Assembly: GCA_041666185.1 (NCBI GenBank)
Contig: JBAYHL010000001.1
Location: forward strand, 69,073-133,072
Source of the DNA: Patescibacteria group bacterium
Lineage (GTDB): Bacteria > Patescibacteriota > UBA1384 > UBA12157 > JAENIV01
Direction of reading: 5' to 3'
DNA: 64,000 bases
Shown here: piece by piece, positions 11,336 to 44,659 of the stretch
Layout: each line of letters starts with the position of its first letter
How positions within the stretch are numbered: the stretch's first letter is position 1
The notes under the pieces: generated by a model
Database searches by the model: none
Seen by the model: the letters and a program-made list of their open reading frames with translations, nothing else
What the model was told of the DNA's origin: nothing
Made by a program: the position numbers and the translations under genes

Positions 11336-11427
11336 GGGGCACATACTTATACAAGCGATTGTCTTTCGCCGGTGATTTGGTTTTAGAGCGAATTACAAAG
11401 CTAGTGCATTGATGGAAAAGTGTAAAG

Positions 11428-11552: not shown

Positions 11553-11912
11553 AAAAACAAAAAGGGCTGTCTTGCTAAGAGGACGACCCTTTTTGCTCTA
11601 TATGTTCTAATTTTTTGTAGTTTTTATCCAGCCACCAAGCATTTTACCGATCTCAATTAAAGGCTCGGAAAGTCGTAAAAATTTTTTGTTATCAATTGCC
11701 TTGATATCAAGCAATGCCTTAATTAAAGTTTGCAATATTTTAAGTTTTGTATCGACGGATTGTAAAACGGCGAGACGATTTTGCCCGTATTTTGCGTTTG
11801 CTTCATACAGCATTTCTAAAATATTTAAAGCTGTATTTTCGCATTTGGCCCCAATTGTATACCTATCCTTCTTAGGAATAGTCTCAATAGTGCTGTATAA
11901 ACACAAGTAAAA

Positions 11913-12599
<687 letters not shown>

Positions 12600-12612
12600 T
12601 TTAACAAGTCAG

Positions 12613-13053
12613 TTGTTCTCAAATATATATCTCAATCCGCTCGATCAGTTTATTAAAAGAGACCTTAAAGAAAAATATTACATTCGCTATGCTGATGATT
12701 TTGTGATTTTGAGTTGTGATCGGGATCATTTAGAGAATCTTATCCCAATATTAAGGTCATTTCTTACTGATGATCTTAAGCTAGAATTGCACCCAGATAA
12801 GATTATCTTGCAAAAATGGAGCCAAGGAATCGACTTTCTAGGATATGTAATTTTTCCATACCATACTGTGCTACGAACAAAAACGAAACAAAGAATGATG
12901 AGAAAAATAAGGAATAATTGCTATCTTTTGAAAGAAGGCCGTATGTCTAGAGAGGCTTTTAATCAAGCTCTGCAATCATATATAGGAATTTTGAAACATT
13001 GCCGCTCTCACGTGTTACGCGATAAGATTGAAACCATCGTTAAAGAAGTCTGA
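12613..13053 (+). CDS. DGR reverse transcriptase, C-terminal part (PLGNLTSQ DGR signature, YADD catalytic motif, thumb); frame +1 relative to N-terminal part
   Basis: The frame is open from 12565 (AFGRGTPLGNLTSQLFSNIYL...) and includes YADDF. Confidence 0.7.
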   Translation: MFSNIYLNPLDQFIKRDLKEKYYIRYADDFVILSCDRDHLENLIPILRSFLTDDLKLELHPDKIILQKWSQGIDFLGYVIFPYHTVLRTKTKQRMMRKIRNNCYLLKEGRMSREAFNQALQSYIGILKHCRSHVLRDKIETIVKEV

Positions 13054-27632: not shown

Positions 27633-29174
27633 GTGAGTAGCATATTAACACGTTTTGTTTATGGTGCAATAATTCTAGTAGTTATAATAGGATCAATTTT
27701 TTATTTTTTAAATCGTAAAAAAATTACTTCTCAAGCCGACCAAACTCTTTCCAAAACTTACGCTACTTTAACTGATGAGGAAAAAAATAGTCTTTTATCA
27801 GCCAGTGCCGATGTAACTAAGCTTAAGGACAAACTTTCGGCTTTAGAAATTACCATTAGTAAATCGGCTCAAACCACAACTCCAGCTGGGCAAACAACAA
27901 CTATTTTACAACCAGTAGCTAATGCTTTAGAAGGTTTAGGAGCACTAAATATTAGTAATGACTCTATTTCACTCGCCCTTTCAGACGGTAGCTTAGCTCA
28001 AAGTGATTCAGGCTTATCGGTTTCTGGAAGCTATGATGATAATTTTTTAAGAGTCGATACAAATTTTGATGGTGATGTAAGTGGAACCTACGACACATTG
28101 GTAATTTCTGAAAGTTACGATGATAGTTTTTTGAAAATCGGCACCAGTTTTGATGGTGATGTGGAAGGAAATTACAACACTTTAGAAATTGTTGACGGAT
28201 CAATCATTAACGCGGACATTAGTAACACGGCAGCAATTTCTTGGACTAAAATTAGCAAAACCGGTGCTCTTTTAACCGATTTTGGTGGTGATCATGGCGA
28301 TTTAGCAGGTTTAGGTAACGATGATCACGTAATTTATGCTCTACTTGCCGGAAGGGCTGGCGGGCAAACCTTAAATGGTGGTACAGCCGCAAATGATGAC
28401 TTAACCTTTGACTCGACAACAAATGGAACTAAGGGATACATACTTATAAACCCAACTGGTGGTAATGTGGGGATTGGTACTGATACACCCACTGGGACAC
28501 TTCATATTAAAGCTGATTCAGATGATCAACAATTAATTATCCAATTAGATGCAGCTCAAACGGTTAACAGCTTTGAAATTTATAAATCTGATGGTACAAC
28601 TAGATTAGTATCTTTTGAAGATGATGGCACATTAGTTTTTGAAAATGATGCGGTAGTTTATGATGATTTACAACAACCAGGCCTTTTAGTCAGAACAAAT
28701 GCTTCGGCTCCGGATTTAGTCACATTTGGACCAGTGGTTACTAATCTTATCATTTATGGTTTTGATGGAACTGCTACCCTTGAACAAGTTTATTTTAATG
28801 TTCAACTTCCTCATTCCTACAAACTCGGAACGGATCTTTACCCACATATTCACTGGTCACCAACCGATACTTCAGCCGGAAATGTTGTTTGGAAGCTAGA
28901 ATATAGCTGGGCGGATGTAAACGGTACTTTTGCAGCGCCAACAACAATAGCGACAACTCCCCAAGCTACTGGCGGAACCGCTTGGGCACATAATGTAGTA
29001 TCGTTTCCAACAATTAGTGGCACTGGAGTTGATATTTCAAGAATTTTAGTTTGTCGTCTGTATCGCGATCCGGCTGATGCTGGCGACACTTACACTCATG
29101 ACGCTGCTCTTTTAAATTTTGATTTCCATTTTGAAAAAGATACTTTAGGTTCTAGAGAACTATGGATAAAATAA
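27633..29174 (+). CDS. Membrane-anchored repeat protein (tail-fibre-like beta-rich protein, hypothetical)
   Basis: It has an N-terminal TM helix and tandem copies of SYDDxFLxxxTxFDGDVxGxYxTLxI. Confidence 0.45.
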   Translation: MSSILTRFVYGAIILVVIIGSIFYFLNRKKITSQADQTLSKTYATLTDEEKNSLLSASADVTKLKDKLSALEITISKSAQTTTPAGQTTTILQPVANALEGLGALNISNDSISLALSDGSLAQSDSGLSVSGSYDDNFLRVDTNFDGDVSGTYDTLVISESYDDSFLKIGTSFDGDVEGNYNTLEIVDGSIINADISNTAAISWTKISKTGALLTDFGGDHGDLAGLGNDDHVIYALLAGRAGGQTLNGGTAANDDLTFDSTTNGTKGYILINPTGGNVGIGTDTPTGTLHIKADSDDQQLIIQLDAAQTVNSFEIYKSDGTTRLVSFEDDGTLVFENDAVVYDDLQQPGLLVRTNASAPDLVTFGPVVTNLIIYGFDGTATLEQVYFNVQLPHSYKLGTDLYPHIHWSPTDTSAGNVVWKLEYSWADVNGTFAAPTTIATTPQATGGTAWAHNVVSFPTISGTGVDISRILVCRLYRDPADAGDTYTHDAALLNFDFHFEKDTLGSRELWIK

Positions 29175-29915: not shown

Positions 29916-31109
29916 ATGTACAACAAAACTCGAAATTTCCGCGGTGGAACAACTTTTCGACCTTCTCAAAATTATGGTCGTCGAAGAAATTTTTCAGGAA
30001 ACCAATCTACGGAAAAAATTGATATCTCAAGATTTATTAAGAAAGCAACTGAAAACAATGGCACAGAAAAAGAAGTAATAAAAAATTCTTTTGCTGATTT
30101 TAAATTTGTTCCAGAAATAGAGAAAAACTTAAAAGTAAAAAGCTATACTATTCCAACTCCTGTTCAAGACCAAACAATCGGACATATTTTAGAAGGTCGC
30201 GATATTATTGGACTCGCCAGCACCGGCACGGGTAAAACCGGGGCGTTTTTACTACCAATGATTAATAAGACTTTTAAAGATAGAAGCCAAAAAGTTTTAA
30301 TTATTGCCCCTACTCGTGAGTTAGCTTTTCAAATTGCTAATGAATTTCATTCATTTTCTTTCGAAATGAAGATTTTTTCCGCTCTTTGCGTTGGTGGAAT
30401 GCCAATATATAAACAAATTGCTAATTTGAAACGCCAACCACAATTTGTTATTGGCACACCTGGAAGACTAAAAGATCTACACAAACGTAATTTAATTAAT
30501 TATAGTCAATTTCAAAATATTATCCTTGACGAAGTTGATAGAATGCTTGATATGGGTTTTGTTAATGAAATCCGTGAGATTTTAGAACAATTTCCAAAAG
30601 TTAGACAATCATTATTTTTTTCGGCAACAATGCCACCAAAAATTCGAACTCTAACCGAAGAATTTTTACAAAACCCGATAACAGTATCTCTTAACATTGG
30701 CCAAACGGCCTGTAATGTTGATCAGGATATTGTCAGAGCGAGTGAAAGCGAAAAATTCGACAAGCTTCGAGAGATTTTATCTCAAAGTAACTTTGAAAAA
30801 GTTTTGATTTTCAGTGAAACCAAAAGAGGCGTTGAAAAGTTAACAACAAATTTAATAAGTAAGGGTTTTAAAGCTGAGTCTATCCATGGTGATAAACGCC
30901 AAGGACAAAGACAACGAGCACTAAATCAATTTAAAAACAATGAAGTCACTATTTTAGTCGCAACTGATGTCGCCGCTCGTGGTCTTGATATCAAAGATAT
31001 CTCTCATGTAATCAATTACACCATTCCTCAGACATACAATGATTACATTCATCGAATTGGTCGAACTGGCCGAGCAAACAGCAAAGGTGCTGCACTAACT
31101 TTTGTTTAA
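29916..31109 (+). CDS. DEAD-box ATP-dependent RNA helicase
   Basis: Q-motif, GTGKT, DEVD, SAT and HRIGRTGR motifs are all present. Confidence 0.9.
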   Translation: MYNKTRNFRGGTTFRPSQNYGRRRNFSGNQSTEKIDISRFIKKATENNGTEKEVIKNSFADFKFVPEIEKNLKVKSYTIPTPVQDQTIGHILEGRDIIGLASTGTGKTGAFLLPMINKTFKDRSQKVLIIAPTRELAFQIANEFHSFSFEMKIFSALCVGGMPIYKQIANLKRQPQFVIGTPGRLKDLHKRNLINYSQFQNIILDEVDRMLDMGFVNEIREILEQFPKVRQSLFFSATMPPKIRTLTEEFLQNPITVSLNIGQTACNVDQDIVRASESEKFDKLREILSQSNFEKVLIFSETKRGVEKLTTNLISKGFKAESIHGDKRQGQRQRALNQFKNNEVTILVATDVAARGLDIKDISHVINYTIPQTYNDYIHRIGRTGRANSKGAALTFV

Positions 31110-34499: not shown

Positions 34500-34748
34500 C
34501 TAACTCTCCTTTATACTGCTTTTTATCACTTTTTTAATTTCTTCCAGTTTTGGAATAGAACCTACAATCACTGGCTTTTCATTAATTGCCAAAACGGGCA
34601 TTCTCATCCATCCAGTTTCGATAATTTTTTGGATATCAACAATATATTCAACTTCGGAATCGATTTTGAGGTCTTTTGCAGCCTGTTTTGTCAACTCATA
34701 AAGAGTTTTACACGAACAACATCCTGAACCAAATACCTGAATCTTCAT
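34500..34748 (-). CDS. Thioredoxin-fold small redox protein (GSGCCSC)
   Basis: 82-aa protein with a CxxC context. Confidence 0.55.
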   Translation of the reverse strand: MKIQVFGSGCCSCKTLYELTKQAAKDLKIDSEVEYIVDIQKIIETGWMRMPVLAINEKPVIVGSIPKLEEIKKVIKSSIKES

Positions 34749-35017
34749 TTTACTCCTCCTGTTATTTTTATGAGTTTGTTAAGTTGTGAATCCATTAGTT
34801 TTTTATTAAGTTTATAAAATATTTTTTGACCATCTCGACGGTCAAATAACACTTTGTTATCTTTAAGAACTTTAAGATGGTGAGATATTAAATTTTGAGG
34901 CAAATCAAATTCCTTTTGGATTTCACAAACACATCTTTCACCATTTTTAAGAAAGACTATAATTCTAAACCTGTTATCGTCTGCAATCGCTTTTAAAAAC
35001 TCTAAGCTATTATTCAT
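34745..35017 (-). CDS. arsR: ArsR/SmtB-family metalloregulator
   Basis: HTH with a CVCE metal-binding site. Confidence 0.7.
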   Translation of the reverse strand: MNNSLEFLKAIADDNRFRIIVFLKNGERCVCEIQKEFDLPQNLISHHLKVLKDNKVLFDRRDGQKIFYKLNKKLMDSQLNKLIKITGGVK

Positions 35018-35191
35018 AATATCAATTTATATTGATATATCTATCTTATTGAGAAACTAATATTTTGTCAAATAAAAATAGGTTACACCCCAACAGGATT
35101 AAAACATATATTTTCTTTGAAAATTCCGCGAAAGGTGTAACTTCCCTATTTTCTTCTGTAATAATATTTTCTAAATTTTACTAACAAGTTT

Positions 35192-35240
35192 GGCAGCGCC
35201 GACGGGAGTTATGAACAGCTCGGAAACCCACGGTTTTCCA
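35192..35240 (+). repeat. 49-bp direct repeat copy 1 (tRNA-Glu 3'-end-like: reverse complement ends ...CCCGTCGGCGCTGCCA)
   Basis: It is identical to 35720-35768 except for one mismatch. It shares 14 nt with the tRNA-Glu acceptor end. Confidence 0.55.
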
Positions 35241-35345
35241 ACCCCTCTTGAGTTTGAATTTCATATCGTCACCAATAACGTCACGTCATTATTGACTTTT
35301 AAAGAGAAGGGTGTTACAAATAGTTTATCAAAAGGGGGAATAAAG

Positions 35346-35719: not shown

Positions 35720-35768
35720 ATTTTTGCTGGCAGCGCCGACGGGAGTTACGAACAGCTCGGAAACCCAC
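35720..35768 (+). repeat. 49-bp direct repeat copy 2
   Basis: See copy 1. Confidence 0.55.
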
Positions 35769-35906
35769 GGTTTTCCGACGTCCGAGAAGTATCTCGGACT
35801 GCCTTCCTCTACGGGAAACCTCTGGTTTCCCGACCCCTTCCTGGTTCGAATCCCAACTATTAGAACTGAAAAAGAGAGGCAATCATAAATGATTATCTCT
35901 CTTTTT

Positions 35907-35980
35907 CAGCGCCGACGGGATTCGAACCCGTGATCTTCTGCATGAAAAGCAGATATCCTAGGCCTCTAGACGACGGCGCC
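35907..35980 (-). tRNA. tRNA-Glu (anticodon TTC)
   Basis: Cloverleaf read by hand. The acceptor is GGCGCCG/CGGCGCT, the D-arm GTCTAGAGGCCTAGGAT, the anticodon loop TTTTCAT and the T-arm GGGTTCGAATCCC. CCA is not encoded. Confidence 0.8.
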
Positions 35981-36039
35981 ACAAACACACCGATAAATGT
36001 ACTAATAGCACCAGCTAAAAACAAAATTTCGATGGCGCT

Positions 36040-36079
36040 CTCGGCCGCGGAAATTTCTGACGAAATTATAGGCCTCTAG
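36040..36079 (+). repeat. Dispersed palindromic repeat element copy A (TCGGCCGCGGAAATTTCTGACGAAATTATAGGCCTC)
   Basis: It shares CGGCCGCGGAAATTTCTGAC plus (G)AATTATA with 43750-43792 and, as a reverse-complement tandem, with 40658-40729. Confidence 0.6.
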
Positions 36080-36120
36080 CCCGCTAACCGCGGGTCCACG
36101 TCTAGTGGAACGACGGCGCC
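36071..36120 (-). pseudogene. tRNA-Glu 5'-fragment with a 30-nt insertion in the D-arm (pseudo-tRNA)
   Basis: The reverse complement GGCGCCGTCGT[TCCACTAGACGTGGACCCGCGGTTAGCGGG]CTAGAGGCC matches tRNA-Glu positions 1-11 and the D-loop. There is no anticodon or T-arm. Confidence 0.5.
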
Positions 36121-36221
36121 ACAAAAATATCATATCATAAAAATACACTCTTGTCCAGAATGAATAACATGGCAACAAAAATGTTATAATGTTTATGTAT
36201 ATAAAAATATAAAGGAGGAAA

Positions 36222-36902
36222 ATGAAAAAATTTATTTGGACTATTGGCCTTTTGTTAATTTTATTGCCAATCACAAGCTTTGCTGCCAACCAAGACACAG
36301 GACAAAACAATGGACAAACTAGCCAACCATCATCTAGCCCCTCATCAACTCAAAATCAAAACACAACTCAAACCAATAACCCCGAAACTGGCGTGATGAC
36401 ACAAGAACAAACAAATACCCAACTCCAAAGTGAACTGCAAGAAAGTATGCCAAGTTATAGCCCTAAGGGCCAATTTAGCCAAGAACGAATGAGCCAAATC
36501 TCTCTAACGTTAGAAAGTATGGTCATGCTTTCTAACCGATTAGAAAATTCAAATATAAAAGAACAAATTAACTCAATCGCCCACAACCAAGCAAATTCAG
36601 AAGACATGGTCAACCAATCATTAGATAAAGCAGAATCCAGAAGTAAAGTTGCTAAATTCTTTGTTGGACCAAATTACAAAGAATTAAAAAATGTAAAACA
36701 AGAGATAGAACAAAATCGTTTAAGAATCGAAGAACTTAATCGTATTATGTCACAAATAACCAATCAAACAGATAAAACCGAGCTACAAAATCAAATTCAA
36801 ATACTTGAAATACAAAATACCAGTCTAGAGGAAGAATTAGATATTGATATTCAAGGCTTTTCTCTATTTGGATGGCTTTCGAAATCAATAAATAAATATT
36901 AA
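36222..36902 (+). CDS. Secreted Q/N/S/T-rich coiled-coil protein (hypothetical)
   Basis: Signal peptide followed by low-complexity polar repeats. Confidence 0.45.
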   Translation: MKKFIWTIGLLLILLPITSFAANQDTGQNNGQTSQPSSSPSSTQNQNTTQTNNPETGVMTQEQTNTQLQSELQESMPSYSPKGQFSQERMSQISLTLESMVMLSNRLENSNIKEQINSIAHNQANSEDMVNQSLDKAESRSKVAKFFVGPNYKELKNVKQEIEQNRLRIEELNRIMSQITNQTDKTELQNQIQILEIQNTSLEEELDIDIQGFSLFGWLSKSINKY

Positions 36903-36959
36903 ACCGCTAATTAATTTGCATCAAAGTTTCATCCAATATTAATCTGTTATAATAAATTT

Positions 36960-37607
36960 ATGATAGCTCTTTTAGCTAAAATTTTACCTTTGCAATTAGC
37001 AGCAACTTTAAGTCCGGGCATTTTTGCCTTAACAATTATTTTATTTACTAAAAAAAATCATGCCATTGGTCGCGTCCTAGCGCTCTTACTGGGCTCTATT
37101 TTTGTAGCCATCTTTTTAGGTTTTTTAGGCTTAAAAACAGGTCAAAGCATTACTGCTTTTAGCACTCACGGTAAAATATCTGTTATCATTGATTTTGCTT
37201 TAGCAATTTTATTTCTCTATTTTGGTATTAAAGGACTAGTAAAACCAGATCGAGAAAAAAAAGAATCTCTCGGAGAAAATCCTGCTAGACAGCTTGGTAA
37301 ATGGTTTATTGTCGGTTTAATTATAAGTATTACTAATTTTGACGCTGTTTTACTAAATTTTGCTGCCGCTAAAGAAATTGGCGCATCAGGAATTATTTTA
37401 TTCGATAAAATTATTTTACTTTTTGTTGGTATCTTATTTTTTGTTTTACCCATTTTAATACCACTTTTTTTCTACCTAATCTTACCGTCACTCGCCCAAA
37501 AGGTTTTAACACCAATTAATAAATTTTTAGTAAAATTTGGTCGCCTACTGGTTTCAATAATCTTTATTATATTTGCTATTTACTTAATCTACAAAGGATT
37601 AAAATAA
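36960..37607 (+). CDS. Integral membrane protein (6 TM, hypothetical)
   Basis: Hydrophobicity pattern. Confidence 0.45.
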   Translation: MIALLAKILPLQLAATLSPGIFALTIILFTKKNHAIGRVLALLLGSIFVAIFLGFLGLKTGQSITAFSTHGKISVIIDFALAILFLYFGIKGLVKPDREKKESLGENPARQLGKWFIVGLIISITNFDAVLLNFAAAKEIGASGIILFDKIILLFVGILFFVLPILIPLFFYLILPSLAQKVLTPINKFLVKFGRLLVSIIFIIFAIYLIYKGLK

Positions 37608-37635
37608 TAGAATAACCTTAGCAAGGAGAAAATAA

Positions 37636-38409
37636 ATGGAAGAAAAAACAACTGATAAAACTCCCGAAAAACCCAAAAAATCTAAATGGTTACTTTGGAC
37701 TTGTGGATCTTGCGGTTGCCTGGTAATTATCATTATGGTCGCTTTATTTTCCCTTAGATCATTTACCGGTTTTAATATAGGAAAATTTTTTGATAACAGT
37801 CAAAACAATGGTTCTAATTTAGATGAAGAAGACAAAGAGATGACCAAATCGGAACTTATTGATTATTTCGTAGGAGAAACCACTGTTTATCCAGGTTTTG
37901 ATAAATCAATAAAAGTAATGAAATGGGAGAAACCTGTTGTAACTATTTCAGTCGCTGACACACCGCCAGAAGGAGGTATTAAAGCTATTGACGATTTTAT
38001 AAATAAATTTAATAACAATAGCACAAAAACAAAGCTACAACGCATCGAAAGTGACGGAGATATTAAAATTTATTTTCAAGTTTCAACTGATGGTGCCGCT
38101 GGTCGTTCTGGACCAAGTTCGGGGGCAGATTATATTATTGACCATGCAAATATTAAGCTTTCGGAAGAAGCAGCCATGTTCGATCAATCTTTAAGTTCAG
38201 TTCTGTCACATGAAATATTTCACGCACTTGGTTTCACTGGTCACTATCAAGGTAGTGCTTGCCGATTAATGTCACCAACAGTATGTGGTTCTCGTTTAAC
38301 GATTAATGAAGAAAGATTAATCCAAATGCTTTATAGTACCGATATGCCAGACGGTATTAACGAATCCGAGATTAGATCTTTTTTACAAAACTGGAGTCCA
38401 AATAATTAA
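37636..38409 (+). CDS. Membrane-anchored metzincin-like zinc metalloprotease (HEIFHALGFTGH)
   Basis: HExxHxxGxxH motif and an N-terminal TM helix. Confidence 0.6.
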   Translation: MEEKTTDKTPEKPKKSKWLLWTCGSCGCLVIIIMVALFSLRSFTGFNIGKFFDNSQNNGSNLDEEDKEMTKSELIDYFVGETTVYPGFDKSIKVMKWEKPVVTISVADTPPEGGIKAIDDFINKFNNNSTKTKLQRIESDGDIKIYFQVSTDGAAGRSGPSSGADYIIDHANIKLSEEAAMFDQSLSSVLSHEIFHALGFTGHYQGSACRLMSPTVCGSRLTINEERLIQMLYSTDMPDGINESEIRSFLQNWSPNN

Positions 38410-38463
38410 AAACTATATATTCTCTTTTCGTTAACACCTTAATATGGTATAATTTAAAACGAA

Positions 38464-39183
38464 ATGATATTTCTAATTATTTTAGCAACAATTTTTAGCA
38501 CTTTTTTGGGAGGCTTATTTGCTATTCGTTTTCGCGATAAGCTTCATCTAATTTTAGGATTCAGTGCTGGCGCAGTTATTGGTGTCGCCCTTTTTGATTT
38601 ATTGCCAGAATCAATGGAAATGGCGACACAGGCCTATGATGCTAAATTAGTTACTTTATTTATTGCAATTGGATTCGTCGCTTATATGATTTTTGATCGA
38701 TTTTTGTCACTTCATTGTCATGGCGAAAATGAATGCGGGAATCCGAATCACCGCGGAAAACTTGGTGCGGCCACTTTATCGATTCATAGTTTACTTGATG
38801 GATTAGGAATCGGTTTGGCTTTTAAAGTTTCACCGGCTGTTGGCTGGGTTGTTGCCGCCGCTGTTTTGACACACGATTTTTCTGATGGCATTAATACTGT
38901 TAATATGATTTTAAAAAACCATGGCGGGCATCGCCAAGCATTAAAATGGTTAATAACGGATGCTTTAGCTCCTGCCGCAGGTATCGCTCTAACACTTTTT
39001 TTTACCGTTTCCGAACCAGTTTTAGGTCTTATCTTGGCAGTATTTACCGGTCTATTTCTTTACCTTAGTGCCAGTGATTTAATTCCCGAAAGCCACCATC
39101 ATCACCCAACTGCTTGGACTACGCTTATGACTATTTTGGGAATCACGGTTCTTTATTTAGTAATTAATTTTGCTGGACTATAA
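38464..39183 (+). CDS. zupT: ZIP-family zinc transporter (ZupT-like)
   Basis: HSLLDGLGIGLAF and HDFSDG motifs. A TGgTATAAT extended -10 lies 11 nt upstream of the ATG, suggesting a leaderless transcript. Confidence 0.75.
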   Translation: MIFLIILATIFSTFLGGLFAIRFRDKLHLILGFSAGAVIGVALFDLLPESMEMATQAYDAKLVTLFIAIGFVAYMIFDRFLSLHCHGENECGNPNHRGKLGAATLSIHSLLDGLGIGLAFKVSPAVGWVVAAAVLTHDFSDGINTVNMILKNHGGHRQALKWLITDALAPAAGIALTLFFTVSEPVLGLILAVFTGLFLYLSASDLIPESHHHHPTAWTTLMTILGITVLYLVINFAGL

Positions 39184-39190
39184 TTAAAAA

Positions 39191-39931
39191 TTACGGCCAA
39201 ACAGCACGAACACCAGTAATGTCACCCAAACCAAGGGTGTCTTTTTTTAATTCACTTCTACTTGCGTAGCCATACATTGTTAAGTCCTTAGAACCAGAAT
39301 CGTACAAATCTCCCAAACCCATCCAATGTCCAAATTCATGAGTGGCAATATCTCTCAAATCAAAAGCACCTTTCTTACCATTACAATCATTTTGTCCATT
39401 GTAACCAGTATAAGCCCACGAGTAACGACGATTAAAAATCGTATCAGCATCTTTTAGTCGACCGTGACCGTCTGTCCAAATATAGGTAACTGCAACATAA
39501 GATGCTGGCAAATTGCGCCAAAAAATTGCGTTTTGACCATCGTCAGCAGGATTTGCAACAGAAGTCTCGCCTGCATTGTGAAAAAGAATTCCACCACCAG
39601 CACCTTGAAGATTAGAAAATGATAAATCGATAGAAGCTTCTGCCATTTGGCGAGAAACACCTACCGGCAAAGTATTAAAATTTACTCTGTAATCCGTAAT
39701 GCCGCTTTGTAATTTCCAACCACCCCAACCAAAATGATTAACTTGATCATTAGTTGTGCGAGTACAAACTTTGGGAATTGAATTATATTGAATAAGTACA
39801 TGCGGCGTTCCAATTTCTTTCATGGTCTCTTTTTCAATTTCAACGCTAGAAGCACCTGTTTTAATCGGAAAAACAATTACAGTTACAATTAACAAAATCA
39901 GTCCTAACCCCCAAAAAATACTTTTTTTCAA
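39191..39931 (-). CDS. Secreted zinc metalloprotease, snapalysin-like (HEFGHWMGLGD)
   Basis: Signal peptide and an HExxHxxGxxD motif. Confidence 0.55.
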   Translation of the reverse strand: MKKSIFWGLGLILLIVTVIVFPIKTGASSVEIEKETMKEIGTPHVLIQYNSIPKVCTRTTNDQVNHFGWGGWKLQSGITDYRVNFNTLPVGVSRQMAEASIDLSFSNLQGAGGGILFHNAGETSVANPADDGQNAIFWRNLPASYVAVTYIWTDGHGRLKDADTIFNRRYSWAYTGYNGQNDCNGKKGAFDLRDIATHEFGHWMGLGDLYDSGSKDLTMYGYASRSELKKDTLGLGDITGVRAVWP

Positions 39932-40011
39932 AAACCCTCCTTAAATAAATCTCTTTTGTATAAGCATAGCTAATTTAAAAGAAAGTTTCAATTTCATTTT
40001 CCTCCAATCTA

Positions 40012-40641
40012 TTACGGATAAATGTCTCCCCTAAATAAATATTTGCCATTAAAAATCATTGGCAGAGGTGTTTTGTCATCGGGATTTGGACCAGGTCGAT
40101 ATGCCATCAAGTGCAAATGCGGGAAATCGGAAGCACCGCTATTGCCAATCAAGCCAATCTGCTGATCAACAGTGACAATATCACCCACTTTCACCAAAAT
40201 TGAATCTTTTTTGAAGTGAACTAGCATCACATTAAATTGACCACAATCAATGAGGATGCGGTTTGCTTCAATTTCATTGCCTCTTGTGCCAATTGGCATG
40301 TCGGGGAAACCATCGATAACTTTTTCAACATTACCATTACAAGGACTATAAACTGGCGTGCCAAAAGTTGGGTTAGATTCCAACCCGGATTGGCGAAATT
40401 TAAAGAAATCACTCAGTTTTACCTGTTTGGCAATATCAAGAGCATATTTTTCAGGCGGCTGAGTGTGAGTACTCCCATTTGGCCCGGATTGAATTGCTTG
40501 AAACGAGCCATCTTTCAAAGGAAATTCCAAACTCACAGCACCATCTGGTACTTTCATTGATTTACGCTTTTCAATCTTGAAAACATAATAAGCACCGCAG
40601 ATAACTGCCAATACCAAAACAATAAAAAGTACTTTTTTCAT
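40012..40641 (-). CDS. M23 family peptidase (LytM-like)
   Basis: Signal anchor with HxxxD and HLH-like motifs (FPHLHLM). Confidence 0.7.
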   Translation of the reverse strand: MKKVLFIVLVLAVICGAYYVFKIEKRKSMKVPDGAVSLEFPLKDGSFQAIQSGPNGSTHTQPPEKYALDIAKQVKLSDFFKFRQSGLESNPTFGTPVYSPCNGNVEKVIDGFPDMPIGTRGNEIEANRILIDCGQFNVMLVHFKKDSILVKVGDIVTVDQQIGLIGNSGASDFPHLHLMAYRPGPNPDDKTPLPMIFNGKYLFRGDIYP

Positions 40642-40657
40642 ATTTTCCTTTCAAGGA

Positions 40658-40729
40658 AAATTCCGCGACAAGCAATCTTGTCTATAATTTCGTCAGAAAT
40701 TTCCGCGACAAGCAATCTTGTCTATAATT
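40658..40729 (+). promoter_or_regulatory. Tandem 32-bp direct repeats, each with the palindrome GACAAGCAATCTTGTC and a TATAAT box, joined by the palindrome AATTTCGTCAGAAATT; candidate tandem promoter/operator
   Basis: Copy 1 is at 40658-40689 and copy 2 at 40697-40729. The reverse complement contains CGCGGAAATTTCTGACGAAATTATA, which belongs to the dispersed repeat family. Confidence 0.55.
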
Positions 40730-40825
40730 ATATTTTAACACAAAAAAGGTTATACTATAAACGAGTTAATCTTATTGTTAGCATGGATGTAGAATAAAAT
40801 GATAGTAATAATAAAGGAGGATTTT

Positions 40826-41065
40826 ATGACAAAGTGGACCTTTGTTTCCAAATTAAGGTTAATTGTTGCGGGGATAATCTCGGTTCTTTTAGTATTTTAC
40901 GCTTTTAATTTTGTGCCGCGAAATATTAACACTATCGCAAACAGAACTTTGGGAATAAAAATTTTTGATTATATATTAAATTTTGTTATTTTCTTCGTGG
41001 TTATCTATCTTGTTTCCTGTTTGCTTACCTATATTTACCAAAAACTGTTCACGCACTCAAAATAA
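40826..41065 (+). CDS. Small membrane protein (hypothetical)
   Basis: RBS AAAGGAGG. Confidence 0.35.
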   Translation: MTKWTFVSKLRLIVAGIISVLLVFYAFNFVPRNINTIANRTLGIKIFDYILNFVIFFVVIYLVSCLLTYIYQKLFTHSK

Positions 41066-41245
41066 TCAAGACTTAGACCTCTTAGGGGACGGTTCTCTTT
41101 TTAAGGTAAAATTTCGCTTTTTCGCTAATCACCCCCACACTCATGGGGTGTTGATTTTTGATCTAAAATCTGCTAACTTAATGAGGATTAGCACGACTCT
41201 TTGTTTTTTCTTAACATAAAAAAAGAGGTGTTGTTCTTGAAAATC

Positions 41246-41683
41246 ATGACACTTACAAAAAACGATCGCGACAAGATCGTTGAAGAAGCTTACAAGTTTT
41301 TGAATACACCTTATTGTCTTTGTGGTGATGGTAAAAATACTTTTAATTGCAGTCAATTCATAGTTTCCGTCATTAAGAATGCATTAAATGTAGATTTACC
41401 AGCAAAAGTTGATTGGCTCTATCTTGTTTCATCAATTGTAAAACCTGAAAATCTCCAAGCAGGAGATTTGGTTTTCTTTTGCCGTCAACCAAGACCTACG
41501 GGGAGAATCGCCACCCATGTTGCAATATTTGTTGGTGACAAAAAAATTATCCATGCCCGTCAACGAGCAGGCAAAGTGGTAATAGAAGCAATAGAAGATT
41601 TTTCAGAAACGCTCATCACGTCTAAAGATCCCAATGAGTTGCATCAATGGTTGGAAGAAATTATATCTCTAACAAGGTCATGA
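41246..41683 (+). CDS. NlpC/P60 (C40) family peptidase
   Basis: A Cys...His...His arrangement (FNCSQF, HVAIFVG, IIHA). Confidence 0.65.
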   Translation: MTLTKNDRDKIVEEAYKFLNTPYCLCGDGKNTFNCSQFIVSVIKNALNVDLPAKVDWLYLVSSIVKPENLQAGDLVFFCRQPRPTGRIATHVAIFVGDKKIIHARQRAGKVVIEAIEDFSETLITSKDPNELHQWLEEIISLTRS

Positions 41684-41840
41684 AAAATTCATGACCTTTT
41701 ATTTAAAATAAATTTTTAATAATTATAAAAAAACCAGACAAACTGGTGCATTTTCATTAACTTTCAAAAAGAGGGCCTGGCGGGTCACTATTTTAAAAAT
41801 GTTAAGAGATGATCAATACTGGAAGGTGCTAAAGCCAAAG

Positions 41841-42449
41841 CTAGATTCTATTCAAGTTTTTGGAAAATAAGATCTTCCTGCAAGTACAGTAATTTCCAAG
41901 ATGACAAAGAGCAAGTGTTGAAGCGGTAAAATTGATAGGCGTATTTATGTCATCTAATTTGCCAAAACCAATCGTTATATGAGGATTAAAATTATTAAAA
42001 CTCGACTTTTTAGCATAATTTTTAATCCAGCAAAGGGTAATTTCTTCGACGGCTGGTGGAGAAAAAACTGTATTTATTGAAATATCGTATAATAGAAATG
42101 GTTTTAACTTTGTCATAACTATTTCGTGCAGTGATTGTAGTTCTGGCGCTTTCTTTATTATAAATTCTGAAACGATTTCTTTAGACGGAATTGTGTTGTC
42201 GTGATAAGTATCAGCTATTAGTTCAAATGTATGAAATTTAGAAGCAATGTCTTGTAGCGTTTTCGTAACTTTTTGTAAATCACTTTCTTTAATTCCTCCC
42301 ATTGCTAAAGAAATGTGTGGCAAGCAGTTTTCTTTATTTAATATAATTTTGCCACTAAATTTCTTAAATTGTCGCCTACTTATTCCAACAGCTTGATTGG
42401 TCATAGAATTATCTGGAAGCAACACAACGTCAATTGCAATTTTTGACAT
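41841..42449 (-). CDS. 2H phosphoesterase / RNA 2',3'-cyclic phosphodiesterase (LigT-like)
   Basis: Two HxS/TxS-type motifs (PHISLA, PHITIG). Confidence 0.65.
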   Translation of the reverse strand: MSKIAIDVVLLPDNSMTNQAVGISRRQFKKFSGKIILNKENCLPHISLAMGGIKESDLQKVTKTLQDIASKFHTFELIADTYHDNTIPSKEIVSEFIIKKAPELQSLHEIVMTKLKPFLLYDISINTVFSPPAVEEITLCWIKNYAKKSSFNNFNPHITIGFGKLDDINTPINFTASTLALCHLGNYCTCRKILFSKNLNRI

Positions 42450-42571
42450 ATGGTTTCTGTTTCTAAAATTATTTTTTCTTGAGTTATAACTATTTAGCTA
42501 TACTAAAAAATCGCCGGAAAAGCGATATTTTTAATTATGTAATTATATAAATTTACACTTTAGGATATTAA

Positions 42572-42643
42572 AGGGCCTGGTGAGGATCGAACTCACGACA
42601 AATTGCTTAAGAGGCAATCGCTCTACCACTGAGCTACAGGCCC
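42572..42643 (-). tRNA. tRNA-Lys (anticodon CTT)
   Basis: Cloverleaf read by hand. The anticodon loop is CTCTTAA and the T-arm GTGAGTTCGATCCTCAC. Confidence 0.8.
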
Positions 42644-42719
42644 TGGCGCCCCTGGAGGGAATCGAACCCCCAACCTTGACGTTAGAACCGTCCTGCTCTG
42701 TCCGTTGAGCTACAGGGGC
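42644..42719 (-). tRNA. tRNA-Arg (anticodon TCT), CCA encoded
   Basis: The acceptor is GCCCCTG/CAGGGGC, the anticodon loop GTTCTAA and the T-arm GGGGGTTCGATTCCCTC. It abuts tRNA-Lys with no spacer. Confidence 0.75.
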
Positions 42720-42870
42720 CAAAACTAGTTTGATTATAAGCGAAGCTTGTAAGCTAGACTTAATAATCTAATTATAACAGATTTAAAAGCATTTTTAAAG
42801 AGTTTGTATTCATCTTTTCTGGTCTATGTTACGATAAATATATGGCTGCTAGAAAAATTATTTTATAAAT

Positions 42871-43674
42871 TTAAGTTGTAATATCTCGTCTGGTAAAAAT
42901 AACGAGTCCTAAAATAAAAAATACTATCGATACACCCAAAAAAACCACATAAGACCAGTGGTCTATTTGGTTATGAATTAAAGCCTTACCAGGATTAAAA
43001 TAATAGAAAAACGAAACATATTTCAAATCTGCCAAACTCTCTTTAATTACTGACAAAATATTTAAAACATACATTAAAACCAAAAGTCCGCCAGTTATAA
43101 AGAAAACTTTACCTTTATCCGAAAAAATTGCCGACATTACAAAGGCAACACTAAAAACACTTAGGCCAAACATAAAACCTAAAAGAGCAATTGTCGCAAA
43201 ATTATTTGCCTTAAAAGTAATATTATAAGCATCAGCGAGCGGAATAGCTGAAAAAATAGTGAAAACCACAAAAACTGCTAGCATTGCTAGCCCTGCCAGA
43301 TACCTACCAATGAATAATTTTGCTCTAGAAATAGGTTGTGAAAGTAAAATTTCAATTGTTCCAGTCTCAATTTCATTGGCAATACTTCCCCCGGCAAAAC
43401 TAACTAACATAAAAATAAGCATTATCGGCCACATGAGAGAGAATTGTTCAGTTGACAAATATCCTTCCAGGGTTGTAAAAGATTTAATTTCAAAATTAAA
43501 AGCCTTTAAAAATGATTCTGGATAATTCTTGATTAATTGTTCTAAACTAGCTGATTGATCTTTAAAAGACGGGAATAAAGCAATATACATCCAAAGTAAA
43601 GCAATGCCTGAAATAATATAAATAAGCGTGACGACTCTTCTGTCTCTAATTGTTCGCCAAAAAATTGTCCACAT
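42871..43674 (-). CDS. ABC-2 type transporter permease
   Basis: Six TM helices, translationally coupled to the ATPase gene. Confidence 0.65.
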   Translation of the reverse strand: MWTIFWRTIRDRRVVTLIYIISGIALLWMYIALFPSFKDQSASLEQLIKNYPESFLKAFNFEIKSFTTLEGYLSTEQFSLMWPIMLIFMLVSFAGGSIANEIETGTIEILLSQPISRAKLFIGRYLAGLAMLAVFVVFTIFSAIPLADAYNITFKANNFATIALLGFMFGLSVFSVAFVMSAIFSDKGKVFFITGGLLVLMYVLNILSVIKESLADLKYVSFFYYFNPGKALIHNQIDHWSYVVFLGVSIVFFILGLVIFTRRDITT

Positions 43675-43676
43675 TT

Positions 43677-44657
43677 TTACTCCAATTTTGGTACCGCTAA
43701 CAGGTCTTCATCGTTACTTTTTTCTAAACTAGTGGAAACATTGATTCCAGAATGATTATAGGCCTCCGGCCGCGGAAATTTCTGACCGGAATTATAAAAC
43801 TCTAAGAAAATTTCTTCCAAACTAGCGTGAGAAATCTCCAATTCTTTAATATTATAATTGGCCAATTTTCTAACCAAAGGGTTAATATCACCCTTAACTC
43901 CTAGTTCCAAGCCATTTGGCAACTCTTTTTGAATTTGCACGCCATCAAAAACAAAATCTTGTCGCACAAGCGGGCTATTGAAATAAACTCTTACCGTGTG
44001 CATTCTTTTGTCTTTTAGTTCTTGAATGCTCTCAATCGTTAATAATTTGCCATCTTTAATAATACCTACTCGATCACAAAGACGATCAACTTCAGCCATG
44101 TTATGAGAAGACATAAAAACAGTTGTACCTTTTTTCTGAGACTCTTCTAAAATTTCATAAATTTTATTTTGCAAAAGTGGGTCTAAACCAACTGTTGGTT
44201 CATCCATAATAATTAGCTCCGGTTCAAACATTAAAGATAAAATGAGACCTAATTTTTGTTTATTACCAGAAGAAAGAGATTTAAACTTGATCTTCGGATT
44301 TAAATTTAAATCAGCAACAAGCTTTTGGGCAATAGATTTTTTTCCTCTAAGACCTTCTAAGAAATTAATATGTTCTTCACCAGTCCAACCACCATAAAGC
44401 CTAACATCTCCAGAAAGATAGCCAAGTTTTTCTTTAATCCCAATTTGGCCATTGTTCGCATTTAATCCGAGTAATTTAACACTGCCTACAGTCGGGCGTA
44501 AAAAATCCATTAGACAACGAATTGTTGTGGTTTTTCCGGCCCCATTTGGACCTAAAAATCCAAAAATCTCACCTTTTTCGACCGAAAAAGAAATATCGTC
44601 AACTGCCCGAACTTTGTTAAAATATTTTTTTAAATTTTGTACTTCAATTACATTCAT
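43677..44657 (-). CDS. ABC transporter ATP-binding protein (C-terminal tail overlaps a dispersed repeat element)
   Basis: GPNGAGKTT, LSSGNKQK and IIMDEPT motifs. The start is set at MNVIEVQN, because the longer ORF-track start overlaps the upstream gene. The last about 40 codons run through the repeat at 43750-43792. Confidence 0.8.
   Translation of the reverse strand: MNVIEVQNLKKYFNKVRAVDDISFSVEKGEIFGFLGPNGAGKTTTIRCLMDFLRPTVGSVKLLGLNANNGQIGIKEKLGYLSGDVRLYGGWTGEEHINFLEGLRGKKSIAQKLVADLNLNPKIKFKSLSSGNKQKLGLILSLMFEPELIIMDEPTVGLDPLLQNKIYEILEESQKKGTTVFMSSHNMAEVDRLCDRVGIIKDGKLLTIESIQELKDKRMHTVRVYFNSPLVRQDFVFDGVQIQKELPNGLELGVKGDINPLVRKLANYNIKELEISHASLEEIFLEFYNSGQKFPRPEAYNHSGINVSTSLEKSNDEDLLAVPKLE
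43750..43792 (+). repeat. Dispersed palindromic repeat element copy B (ATTATAGGCCTCCGGCCGCGGAAATTTCTGACCGGAATTATA)
   Basis: Compare with 36040-36079. Confidence 0.6.
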
Positions 44658-44659
44658 TG

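Follow-up and report, generated by a model that had tools for sequence, protein, structure and literature searches.

A miniature double-hairpin repeat, probably mobile, in Berkelbacteria-like Patescibacteria

The 64-kb stretch of DNA analysed here (the window) contains an intact tRNA-Glu gene, an arsR-like operon, an M23 peptidase gene, a gene for an ABC-2 type ATPase (Pfam) and a diversity-generating retroelement (DGR) whose reverse transcriptase (RT) gene is broken. A short repeat of two hairpins, hairpin 1 and hairpin 2, was found at or near each of these. The window held four copies with an intact hairpin 1, one decayed intragenic copy and one fragment. The features are given below with the basis of each call.

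12559–12586, minus strand: partial element-derived sequence at the break of the DGR reverse transcriptase gene (sequence identities, reading frames)
29932–29944, plus strand: doubtful fragment GAAATTTCCGCGG, within an ORF and without a hairpin 1 partner
35107–35149, plus strand: further variant copy (structural scan, match at 35107–35130)
36034–36070, minus strand: copy A (exact 24-mer core)
36070–36130, minus strand: left flank of copy A (aligned with the intact tRNA and three other genomes)
40642–40685, plus strand: copy C-left, a variant unit (fold z −4.71; compensatory changes in hairpin 1)
40686–40725, plus strand: copy C-right, a canonical unit (exact core; fold z −4.53)
43758–43793, minus strand: copy B (Pfam gene call; protein and DNA alignments)

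The 20-mer CGGCCGCGGAAATTTCTGAC was present exactly at 36042–36061 (+) and 43767–43786 (+) and with three mismatches at 40692–40711 (−), and positions 36046–36071 formed a perfect 26-nt inverted match with 40682–40707. No match to the 20-mer core was obtained in 100 shuffles of the sequence (chance expectation 0), which confirms the claim of the first-pass annotation that a GC-rich repeat recurs here beyond chance. A structural scan for perfect stems of 5 bp or more that end at TYCYGCR detected the four copies with intact hairpin 1, compared with 0.3 expected, and added the copy at 35107, which the first-pass annotation did not list. The fragment at 29932 is a 12-mer match, of which ~0.01 are expected per window by chance.

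Read on the strand opposite to that used in the first-pass annotation, a unit consists of YAT, hairpin 1, TCCGC, hairpin 2 and YAT, and measures 31 to ~60 nt. The canonical hairpin 1 is AATTTC-GTCA-GAAATT. It is AT-rich, has a stem of 5–9 bp and drifts in sequence through compensatory changes; a perfect stem lay between YAT and TCCGCG in 16 of 17 sequence variants. Covariation was measured for the outer six pairs on an anchored alignment, the MAFFT alignment being out of structural register. In the anchored alignment, 97% of the cells were paired, and 11 double-sided changes were counted against 0 single-sided changes, a result reached by 0 of 500 shuffles. Compensatory double substitutions in the arms and a variable stem length point to a folded strand rather than a conserved operator. 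The suggestion that the repeat is primarily a DNA-binding protein site was therefore not supported, its copies also lying in any orientation.

Hairpin 2 has a G-C closing pair and starts precisely on the core's final G, but otherwise accepts almost any sequence. A perfect stem of at least 4 bp started from this G in 62% of copies, compared with 8% at a random G, and a stem of at least 6 bp in 34%, compared with 0.9% at random G positions. The triplet after hairpin 2 was TAT in 26 and CAT in 6 of 37 copies, and the left and right YAT triplets showed no co-variation. The shared flank ATTATAGGCCTC corresponds to the element's own YAT/AAT junction and a GGCC hairpin arm. Intact units folded with z-scores of −3.4 to −4.7. 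Copies were solitary or in direct tandem with periods of 31–40 nt, and their orientation relative to flanking genes was random. Inverted pairs occurred at two loci only (L003 and L020), with members ~0.9–1 kb apart; a composite transposon was rejected because these pairs enclose only ordinary housekeeping genes, such as those for GroEL, EF-P and a methyltransferase.

Two classes of copies were distinguished by hairpin 2. In class 1, the hairpin 2 subfamily is common to unrelated loci and genomes (for example, GGCC-GRA-GGCC and GACAAGC-NNNN-GCTTGKC), indicating that the whole unit was copied. In class 2, a left flank of 5–22 nt recurs on the right, where it forms the 3' arm of hairpin 2, and the 5' arm consists of this flank copied in inverted orientation, indicating that the second hairpin was manufactured from the target.

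Berkelbacteria-like Patescibacteria were the sole source of ~65 more copies outside the window, which lie in 3 reference genomes and 16 metagenome datasets. The three or more loci proposed in the first-pass annotation were borne out by the four intact copies in the window; elsewhere, six exact copies were found in the three reference genomes, and 31 metagenome contigs carry the element. The collection comprised ~50 canonical and ~17 variant copies in differing contexts, and 68 distinct copies had an intact hairpin 1. The collection searches used exact 21–25-mers only, so the 100% core identity is partly built in. In ~63 kb of untargeted DNA from relatives, zero copies were found, so the copy number may be modest. 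No Rfam family was assigned to the copies, either at the gathering threshold over the whole window or in a permissive scan of 35850–43900. Phage and plasmid collections gave no match to the element, and the exact 21-mer was absent from IMG/VR. A degenerate 22-mer matched one lineage of ~80-kb phage contigs, adjoining a regulator gene; with roughly 0.03–0.2 matches expected, this is probably a chance match. In the literature searched, no dispersed repeat family was described for Patescibacteria (CPR).

Copy A consists of TAT (36070–36068), AATTTC/GTCA/GAAATT (36067–36052) and TCCGCG (36051–36046), followed by a decayed hairpin 2, GGCCGAGAGCGCC, at 36046–36034. Its hairpin 1 folds, and the whole unit folds no better than shuffles (z −0.18). 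The left flank repeats the first 22 nt of tRNA-Glu(UUC) and 5 nt upstream of it; a 16-nt direct repeat was detected there, and the duplication is broken by a 30-nt GC-rich insert of two mini-hairpins at 36080–36109. The intact tRNA-Glu gene (35981–35906) lies 65 nt downstream. The copy reported at 36040–36079 beside a broken tRNA-Glu was verified by alignment of the 22-nt 5' fragment to the intact gene, and the same arrangement of tRNA-Glu 5' fragment and element was observed in three other genomes. No polymorphism was seen for copy A across two further assemblies of the population (one 100% identical, one a 99.2% strain), both of which carry the identical structure; current mobility was not seen in this comparison.

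In the copy at 35107, TAT-ATTTTC/TTT/GAAAAT-TCCGCG precedes a weak hairpin 2 and TAT. A 10-bp inverted repeat (35082–35091 and 35134–35143) encloses the copy, which lies ~90 nt upstream of the opposite-strand arsR-like operon (neighbours by Pfam). Its hairpin 1 subfamily is shared with C-left and with the copies at L041 and L042.

C-left and C-right form a direct tandem. In C-left, hairpin 1 (ATTTTCC/TTTCAA/GGAAAAT, 40642–40661) is followed by TCCGCG (40662–40667), hairpin 2 (GACAAG-CAAT-CTTGTC, 40667–40682) and TAT (40683–40685). C-left abuts CAT at 40639–40641, the opposite-strand ATG of the M23 peptidase gene, and on the strand of that gene the unit reads AAAGGAAAAT-ATG. C-right comprises hairpin 1 (40686–40701), TCCGCG (40702–40707), hairpin 2 (40707–40722) and TAT (40723–40725), followed by the target remainder AATTATATTTT. 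The tandem noted earlier at 40658–40729 was recovered at 40656–40729, with a 40-nt period and 97% identity. Its description as promoter-like was not borne out, the TATAAT boxes being the YAT|AAT junction of the element and its preferred target. Copy B, which reads AATTCCGGTCAGAAATTTCCGCG-GCCGGAGGCC-TAT and is placed between TAT and AAT, has a decayed hairpin 1 and the hairpin 2 GGCC-GGA-GGCC; the unit has lost any folding advantage over shuffles (z 0.01).

Three comparisons of filled and empty sites show insertion. The M23 peptidase gene has an 84-nt two-unit block separating its promoter from its ATG; this block is absent in the relatives L045, L046 and L047, where the empty site reads ...AAAATATWATT|ATGAAAAAAG. 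No target duplication was found at this site, at which a left CAT faces a right TAT. In the ABC ATPase gene, copy B is a 36-nt, 12-codon in-frame insert in the variable C-terminal tail. It is absent from 14 of 14 homologues in the protein alignment, a DNA alignment was made with L037–L039, and no duplication beyond an ambiguous TAT was found. The first-pass annotation had located a copy inside this gene at 43750–43792, as is the case, and had suggested that it created a C-terminal extension, which is not, since homologues lacking the insert keep the C-terminal DLLxIPKLE. At the murB-ftsQ junction of relatives, a 45-nt insert is present in L004 and L041 and absent in L043 and L044. It consists of 12 nt of duplicated target, an 8–9-nt inverted target copy and the core, and its hairpin 2 is built from the inverted target copy. 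This target contains no YAT, and the copy is old, being common to genomes with 85–90% MurB identity.

The usual target is YAT^AAT, which is abundant in −10-like boxes and directly upstream of ATG (on the strand of the gene, ATT|ATG). At its 5' edge, each unit restores YAT|AAT, so that repeated insertion yields direct tandem arrays. Direct repeats of 5 nt or longer flanked 8 of 22 single copies, compared with 5% of permuted pairs, and repeats of 18–21 nt were found in L025 and L030. Outside the three empty-site cases, duplications measured 4–21 nt; overall, target duplication ranged from none or ambiguous (3 nt) up to 22 nt. A target-site duplication of fixed length, one mark of a MITE, was accordingly not observed, with 12 nt at murB-ftsQ, an ambiguous TAT in the ABC ATPase gene and none at the peptidase gene.

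The first-pass annotation had placed the core at the RT frame break; the 11-mer CGGCCGCGGAA is indeed present at 12576–12586, but it is native coding sequence, and just the 17–20 nt upstream are element-like. The plus-strand sequence of the feature ends in 10 nt, GGCCGCGGAA, that are native Gly-Arg-Gly codons, and in alignment with Bordetella bRT the native protein continues ...IIDSYP-GRGTPLGN.... On the minus strand, a long hairpin 2, GGCCGAAGGC-GGA-GCCTTAGGC, is joined to TTCCGCG. The site has a 16-nt identity to L005-type copies and matches the compound hairpin of L026 at 23 of 27 nt. The DGR itself shows adenine-specific changes from template repeat (TR) to variable repeat (VR), and both VRs are followed by TTCCGCC-GAA-GGCGG. 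This hairpin, TTCCGC with a GC-rich stem and a GAA(G) loop, is similar to the sequence at which the core meets hairpin 2. Unlike the DGR target-site hairpin/cruciform, the element copies do not adjoin variable repeats, and the core is unrelated to the DGR template repeat. We treat the connection to the DGR hairpin as a lead and not as a demonstrated relation.

The repeat is multi-copy, non-coding, hairpin-forming and present or absent at orthologous sites, as are miniature mobile hairpin repeats. We conclude, with a probability of roughly 80%, that the family is a miniature, non-autonomous mobile double-hairpin DNA element; this figure refers to the mobility and the two hairpins alone and excludes the mechanism. 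The family is real and previously undescribed, and its kind is already known.

REP families are palindromes with an unpaired tag, conserved over 20–40 bp with GTAG or CGTC at one end (PMC3733652); their copies are mostly arranged as inverted doublets, REPINs, which are thought to be mobilised by RAYTs (PMC3116915). The present element is likewise a short extragenic hairpin-forming repeat in which a palindrome adjoins a conserved unpaired tag; it is dispersed, clustered and occasionally intragenic, and new copies insert into or beside existing ones. In REPs, however, the palindrome is the conserved family sequence, whereas here a 24-nt hairpin-bearing head is conserved and the adjoining palindrome is hypervariable. 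The tag is TCCGC with a 16-nt hairpin instead of GTAG or CGTC (a CGTC string occurs only in the loop region of the canonical hairpin 1 and is lost in variants), the arrays are direct tandems instead of inverted doublets, and target duplications are variable and include an inverted target copy. A Pfam scan of 20 window ORFs found no RAYT.

Double-hairpin elements, GC clusters and repetitive hairpin-forming elements occur in the mitochondria of Allomyces, yeast, Neurospora and sponges, and mobility at both the DNA level and the RNA level has been proposed for them (PMC2800124). They share with the present element GC-rich hairpins in compact AT-rich genomes, single units and tandem arrays, AT-rich intergenic targets, in-frame positions in protein genes and locations next to tRNA genes. 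They are organellar, whereas our element resides in a bacterial lineage that is free-living or episymbiotic; the sequences are unrelated, and a hypervariable target-templated second hairpin is not reported there. The MITE-like nature suggested by the first-pass annotation was upheld in part: like MITEs, the element is miniature, non-coding, dispersed and polymorphic in presence between relatives, as the three empty sites show. Terminal inverted repeats are absent, the ends being direct YAT...YAT with inverted repeats only in the internal hairpins; target duplications are not of one length as in MITEs; and a typical MITE is several times larger than these units. Another close analogy is with the small dispersed repeats (SDRs) of Nostoc and other cyanobacteria, which PMC3116915 mentions. 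Elhai et al. reportedly described them in 2008 as having a conserved core of 21–27 nt and a hairpin supported by compensatory changes. They are said to occur in many contexts, including inside their own copies or in tandem; their mobility was reportedly inferred by comparing related genomes, and an RNA intermediate is said to be suspected. We know of no enzyme for SDRs and, to our knowledge, neither a target-built second hairpin nor 5–22-nt duplications have been described for them. The likeness lies in the core, the compensatory hairpin, the tandem or nested contexts and the inference of mobility by genome comparison; sequence and host phylum are unrelated, and we draw an analogy only, not membership.

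Several other explanations were weighed. An origin from REP/REPIN-like or IS200/IS605 elements, with a trans-acting HUH tyrosine transposase (RAYT/TnpA) moving single-stranded DNA, is unlikely. It would account for a pair of hairpins bounded at either end by short, conserved single-stranded motifs, for extragenic and clustered copies, for insertion directly 3' of YAT at two of the three empty sites, and for left and right YAT triplets that do not co-vary, as expected if the right YAT is the element's own. Such an enzyme is expected to recognise a hairpin, cleave at short motifs and insert 3' of a fixed target without duplication, but hairpin 2, the expected recognition target, has no conserved sequence, and peel-and-paste transposition yields neither the 12-nt duplication of the third empty site, murB-ftsQ, nor its inverted target copy. 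Copies are moreover single or in direct tandem without inverted doublets, the GTAG/CGTC tag is absent, and no Y1 transposase was found among 20 ORFs of one 64-kb window. Mobilisation by, or derivation from, the DGR machinery is quite unlikely. Here, TTCCGC with a GC hairpin and GAA loop would mimic the VR-flanking hairpin that promotes target-primed cDNA synthesis, and the DGR reverse transcriptase would write the core beside VR-type hairpins. The adenine-specific TR-to-VR changes in the window, the resemblance of TTCCGCC-GAA-GGCGG to the element's TTCCGCG-GCC-GAA-GGCC and the fusion of an element-type hairpin to the RT gene at a 10-nt identity speak for this idea. Reverse transcriptases, moreover, typically leave target duplications of variable length and snap-back copies. 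Nevertheless, the core has no similarity to the DGR template repeat or to its 3' end, the RT gene of the window is disrupted, other element-bearing loci contain no RT (no homologue in ~400 kb), and the hairpin likeness spans only a short stretch (6 + 7 nt, separated by a gap of 3 nt).

It is highly improbable that the family is an immobile, selected cis-regulatory module, such as an operator, a TATAAT promoter, or a structure in a small RNA or 5'-UTR. In favour of such a role, unit boundaries carry TATAAT hexamers, 7 of 68 copies directly adjoin a real gene's start codon, a variant hairpin 1 in the window supplies a Shine-Dalgarno-like sequence, one copy lies upstream of the arsR-like operon, and the covariation means that the folded strand matters. 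Against such a role stand presence and absence at orthologous sites with target duplication, the lack of a preferred orientation or position relative to genes, one copy within a coding region and others between convergent genes, palindrome arms and stem lengths (5–9 bp) that vary unlike those of an operator, and a promoter scan at chance level (44 sites compared with 33 expected in the region). Individual copies may have been co-opted for host function. A linker, vector or primer contaminant or an assembly error, which the first-pass annotation had raised, can be practically dismissed: CCGCGG (SacII) and CGGCCG (EagI) sites are present, and in a literature string search CCGCGGAAATTTCTGAC was identical to part of a widely used PCV2 SacII cloning primer that appears in 18 papers, but that identity ends after 17 nt, and the repeat occurs in ~65 genomic contexts of independent assemblies (16 metagenome datasets and 3 reference genomes), carries compensatory variants, is inherited at orthologous sites in genomes 85–90% identical and is in frame in one gene. 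Three further candidates were rejected. For a CRISPR array, with unique spacers of ~25–50 nt, the "spacers" are 7–17-nt palindromes, often identical in neighbouring units, and most copies are solitary; a single-function site of the parS/dif/Ter type does not agree with insertion polymorphism, tandem arrays and a variable hairpin; and for a promoter or terminator role, the consensus scan was uninformative and orientation to genes was random.

For the mobile double-hairpin element, the insertion product at murB-ftsQ, with its target-made hairpin and 12-nt duplication, indicates an unusual copying-based mechanism, and no transposase was found among the 20 window ORFs scanned against Pfam, nor any Y1_Tnp match. 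One possible but tentative scheme combines target-primed copying, snap-back and stagger fill-in. The 3' end of the target at a staggered break would prime copying of a short structured template of RNA or single-stranded DNA; this would derive from a master copy, for which the tRNA-Glu-linked copy is a candidate. Where copying stopped short of the donor's stable hairpin 2, the nascent end would snap back on the exposed target strand, generating an inverted copy of the target; fill-in of the stagger would leave a duplication of variable length. Partial copies that keep just the hairpin 2 side (the RT site and 29932) point to one direction of synthesis, and copies that keep the core side only, with a target-built hairpin 2, point to the opposite direction, a conflict that weakens the scheme. 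More doubtful is a specific version in which a nicked target primes synthesis on the 24-nt structured template and fold-back copying of the flank produces duplications of 5–22 nt, a process undescribed in bacterial mobile DNA. An RT such as the DGR enzyme, which in this genome already employs a signal of TTCCGC plus a GC hairpin, might drive it. If true, no smaller target-primed retroelement would be known, and bacteria would harbour a SINE-like parasite.

The genomes of Patescibacteria (CPR) are tiny and streamlined, and yet they carry proliferating selfish DNA of only 31–60 nt. Its effects are visible at three genes of the window. The M23 peptidase gene gained an 84-nt leader in which the mutated hairpin 1, judged from its sequence, may serve as a Shine-Dalgarno site; the element can thus part a promoter from its start codon and then perhaps provide a new ribosome-binding site. 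The ABC ATPase gained 12 codons through copy B, and a 5' fragment of tRNA-Glu now adjoins the intact tRNA-Glu gene. The element can lengthen a protein by 12 codons, leave fragments of tRNA genes and break metagenome assemblies. It is also a practical marker for the clade and a warning for promoter and small-RNA annotation. Several contigs terminated within the element, as is typical of repeats.

The repeat is a miniature mobile element made of two hairpins. Read on the strand opposite that used in the first-pass annotation, one unit runs YAT, AATTTC-GTCA-GAAATT (hairpin 1), TCCGC, G[variable stem-loop]C (hairpin 2) and YAT; hairpin 1 and TCCGCG form the conserved core. Copies and host genes in the window are as follows.

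36034-36070, minus strand: copy A
43758-43793, minus strand: copy B, within the ABC-2 ATPase gene (43677-44741, minus strand)
40642-40685, plus strand: left unit of copy C, beside the M23 peptidase gene (40012-40641, minus strand)
40686-40725, plus strand: right unit of copy C
35107-35149, plus strand: a further variant

The 20-mer CGGCCGCGGAAATTTCTGAC reported earlier was found exactly at 36042 and 43767 and, with 3 mismatches, on the opposite strand at 40692-40711; none of the shuffles matched it. The segments 36046-36071 and 40682-40707 formed a perfect inverted match of 26 nt, and the reported tandem was borne out at 40656-40729, with a period of 40 nt.

Hairpin 1 is under structural constraint. 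It was anchored exactly between YAT and TCCGCG, and all but one of the 17 sequence variants had a perfect stem of 5-9 bp; the stems were of 11 kinds, and the loops varied. Across its outer six pairs, 97% of cells were paired, and changes were double-sided in 11 cases and single-sided in none. The observed level of covariation was attained in 0 of 500 shuffles and collapsed in slid registers. An orthologous copy in two genomes differed by a single compensatory pair (AATTTC/GAAATT vs AATTTT/AAAATT). Hairpin 2 took the final G of the core as its first base. Perfect stems of at least 4 bp were found there in 62% of copies compared with 8% at random G positions, and stems of at least 6 bp in 34% compared with 0.9%. 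The triplet after it was TAT in 26 and CAT in 6 of 37 copies. Its sequence was otherwise free, from mini-hairpins such as GCGAAGC up to 11-bp stems, with GAA loops recurring on differing stems. On single-strand folding, intact units formed the double hairpin (z of -4.5 and -4.7); copies A and B, both decayed, gave z of about 0.

Comparison of filled and empty sites showed that the element inserts into new sites and has a target preference. Homologues of the ABC-2 ATPase end in ...LEEIFLEFY, a short variable linker and DLLxIPKLE. The end is unchanged in the window protein, which carries ~12 more residues; the insert, 36 nt (AATTCCGGTCAGAAATTTCCGCG GCCGGAGGCC TAT) placed between TAT and AAT, is internal and in frame, and the C-terminal extension proposed in the first-pass annotation was thus not upheld. 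At the M23 peptidase gene, three relatives (87, 85, and 72% identical) carry the empty site ...TGTTAAAATATWATT|ATGAAAAAAG...., and in the window two units (84 nt, 40642-40725) separate ATT from ATG, the target on the element strand being CAT^AAT. The relatives have an extended -10-like sequence, TGTTAAAAT, 6 nt upstream of ATG, and from this sequence their gene without the insert looks leaderless to us; in the window, the -10-like promoter is displaced 84 nt from ATG. In the ATG-adjacent unit, a variant, hairpin 1 reads AAAGGAAAAT-ATG on the gene strand. Overall, 7 of 68 distinct copies with an intact hairpin 1 lie directly against the start codon of a real divergent gene, among these genes M23 peptidase, MurC, L31, and one for an RsmH-like protein. 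Examples are 40639-40668 in the window and, at loci from other genomes and metagenomes (L numbers), ~85-135 in L041 and L042, ~3384 in L030, and ~1403 in L013. This fits the YAT^AAT (ATT|ATG) target. For M23 peptidase and MurC, hairpin 1 of the variant unit supplies a purine-rich, Shine-Dalgarno-like sequence directly before ATG.

The murB-ftsQ site is empty in L043 and L044 (GGTCARTGGTAR|(A)GGAGG) and filled in L004 and L041 by 45 nt (ACATTGACC + GCGGAAATTTCTGACGAAATTATA + GGTCAATGGTAA), comprising the core, a 12-nt target duplication, and an 8-nt inverted target copy. The inverted copy (CATTGACC vs GGTCAATG) makes hairpin 2; the target before insertion had no hairpin. The insertion is old, because it is common to genomes with 85-90% MurB identity. 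Two contigs of the filled genomes break within the insert.

In one class of copies, hairpin 2 is built from the target, with a duplication of variable length. In 8 of the 22 solitary copies whose hairpin 2 is clean, a left-flank stretch of 5 nt or more recurred as the hairpin 2 3' arm, compared with 5% of permuted pairs; the repeat reached 18-21 nt in L025 and L030. Copies of this class have an inverted version of the flank as 5' arm and the remainder of the duplicated segment as loop. The target-site duplication that had been raised for this repeat therefore holds for such segments, including the 12 nt at murB-ftsQ, but not for the right YAT: left and right YAT triplets did not co-vary, so the right YAT is part of the element and not a 3-nt duplication. 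The remaining copies have hairpin 2 types common to unrelated sites and genomes.

GGCC-GRA-GGCC: window copy B, L013, L005/L011, L019, L026
GACAAGC-NNNN-GCTTGKC: window copy C, L022, L036, L010, L041/L042

Whole units can therefore be copied as well, and this is observed. YAT|AAT is regenerated at the 5' edge of every unit, which accounts for tandem arrays with differing hairpin 2 (L019, L022, L026, and L035). The best reading of copy C places a canonical core, which duplicated the 16-nt hairpin, after an older variant unit.

The window also contains a complete-looking diversity-generating retroelement (DGR).

7651-13053: DGR, with two target genes ending in variable repeats
9655-9778 and 10728-10851: variable repeats
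11428-11551: template repeat
11913-13053: reverse transcriptase (RT) gene

Variable-repeat mismatches fell at template adenines in 23/24 and 17/17 cases. The RT aligns with Bordetella bRT and is split and frameshifted by ~90 nt between ...IIDSYP and GRGTPLGN.... This interruption contains a 10-bp hairpin, (GA)17 at ~12522-12559, and GCCTAAGGC-TCC-GCCTTC, joined to native GGCCGCGGAA (Gly-Arg-Gly); it could make RT expression length-variable. Together with the native part, the site matched L005-type copies over 16 nt and the compound hairpin 2 of L026 at 23/27 nt. The 11-mer noted earlier at this frame break, CGGCCGCGGAA, is indeed present at 12576-12586, but is therefore native coding sequence, to which an element-type hairpin was fused at a 10-nt identity. 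TTCCGCC-GAA-GGCGG lies ~40 nt downstream of both variable repeats (9812-9828 and 10885-10901) in a 27-nt conserved stretch and is probably the DGR target-recognition hairpin. Its resemblance to the core/hairpin 2 junction points towards the DGR machinery as a lead, not as evidence. A further sequence, GAAATTTCCGCGG at 29932-29944, lies within a 408-aa ORF, the rest of the element being absent, and may be a remnant or chance.

As a mechanism, a staggered break would leave a 3' end of the target that serves as primer on a short, structured template; where the donor hairpin stays uncopied, the nascent end would snap back onto the exposed flank, and fill-in of the stagger would give the duplication. 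We consider this scheme, as stated, tentative (probability roughly 0.3). The main rival, movement by an HUH-type single-strand mechanism, accounts for the YAT ends but fails to explain why there are duplications and why the sequence of hairpin 2 is free. For primed copying, the copies point in opposite directions, since target-built copies retain the core side and the fragments at the RT site and 29932 retain the hairpin 2 side. A Pfam scan of 20 window ORFs and an RT search in ~400 kb of element-bearing loci found no mobilizing enzyme.

We file the element as a kind of miniature mobile hairpin repeat, the first found for Patescibacteria in the literature searched; its target-templated second hairpin is unusual. 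Cyanobacterial small dispersed repeats, which we take to be an analogue, work likewise. So do REP/REPINs (PMC3733652, PMC3116915) and mitochondrial double-hairpin or GC-cluster elements (PMC2800124). The element failed the defining tests of REP/REPINs, MITEs, and CRISPRs; of the suggested MITE-like nature, insertion at new sites stands. A CRISPR array was rejected, the "spacers" being 7-17-nt palindromes. No Rfam family matched the element in the whole window or in a permissive scan of 35850-43900. Orientation relative to flanking genes was random, with convergent, divergent, co-directional, and anti-directional arrangements about equally frequent, which argues against a primary role as promoter, terminator, or cis-acting RNA. 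Inverted element pairs at two loci had only housekeeping genes between them.

Scanning one genome per species for an exact 25-mer gave six copies across three MAGs, and a 21-mer scan of JGI metagenomes matched 31 contigs, several with 2-3 copies in tandem; these scans demanded exact words, so the 100% core identity of their matches is partly by construction, and the true spread is seen in local variants. With relaxed local searches, ~50 canonical and ~17 variant copies were gathered. Some motif-bearing reference records bear the title "Candidatus Saccharibacteria." Many contigs end at or within a copy, in the way that assemblies typically stop at repeats. Phage and plasmid collections (including an exact 21-mer search of IMG/VR) contained nothing similar to the element. 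The sequence AATTTTGTCAAAAATTTCCGCG, the same as a variant core, occurs in IMG/VR contigs of one phage lineage (L048-L051, ~80 kb); the ribosome-binding site of a response-regulator-like gene starting MRIAICDD... is 20 nt away. This similarity is probably chance. Vector or linker contamination was excluded. A literature string match showed that CCGCGGAAATTTCTGAC equals 17 nt of a SacII primer for cloning whole porcine circovirus 2 genomes, a coincidence that could misguide contamination screens. The window is Patescibacteria (CPR)-like: its G+C is low, its tRNAs are scattered, and it has a LOOT RNA (Rfam RF03000, 62954-63077; 60.6 bits, exceeding the gathering score). Proteins identical or close to those of the window carry the source names "Patescibacteria group bacterium" and "Berkelbacteria."

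At four loci (the window, L005, L011, and L028), the element is preceded by the opening 20-22 nt of a tRNA-Glu gene and stands past the D-arm GGCC; the GGCC hairpin 2 family may have descended from this site. The tRNA remainder resumes past hairpin 2 for 10-20 nt in L005, L011, and L028. Downstream of the element, an intact tRNA-Glu follows at 40-65 nt in the window, L005, and L011, and at ~520 nt in L028. The tRNA-Glu 3' end (CAGCGCCGACGGGA...) also occurs in three repeats (35189-35242, 35726-35779, and 35902-35920), two of which reach 52 nt at 96% identity; they resemble att-type repeats that remain where small insertions have entered downstream of the tRNA gene. One small ORF, without a Pfam match, lies in the intervening segment. 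The duplicated tRNA-Glu 5' fragment is broken at 36080-36109 by a 30-nt GC-rich insert with mini-hairpins TCCAC-TAGAC-GTGGA and CCCGC-GGTTA-GCGGG and a CCGCGG site; this insert may represent another type of small GC-rich insertion. In the region of 34745-35017 and 35082-35143, the further variant copy, absent from the first-pass annotation, lies upstream of an operon of arsR-like, thioredoxin-like, and ArsP-permease genes, and its flanks form a 10-bp inverted repeat that encloses it. Two tandem 84-nt repeats (75% identity) at 28021-28188, within a 513-aa ORF, are probably a repeated protein domain.
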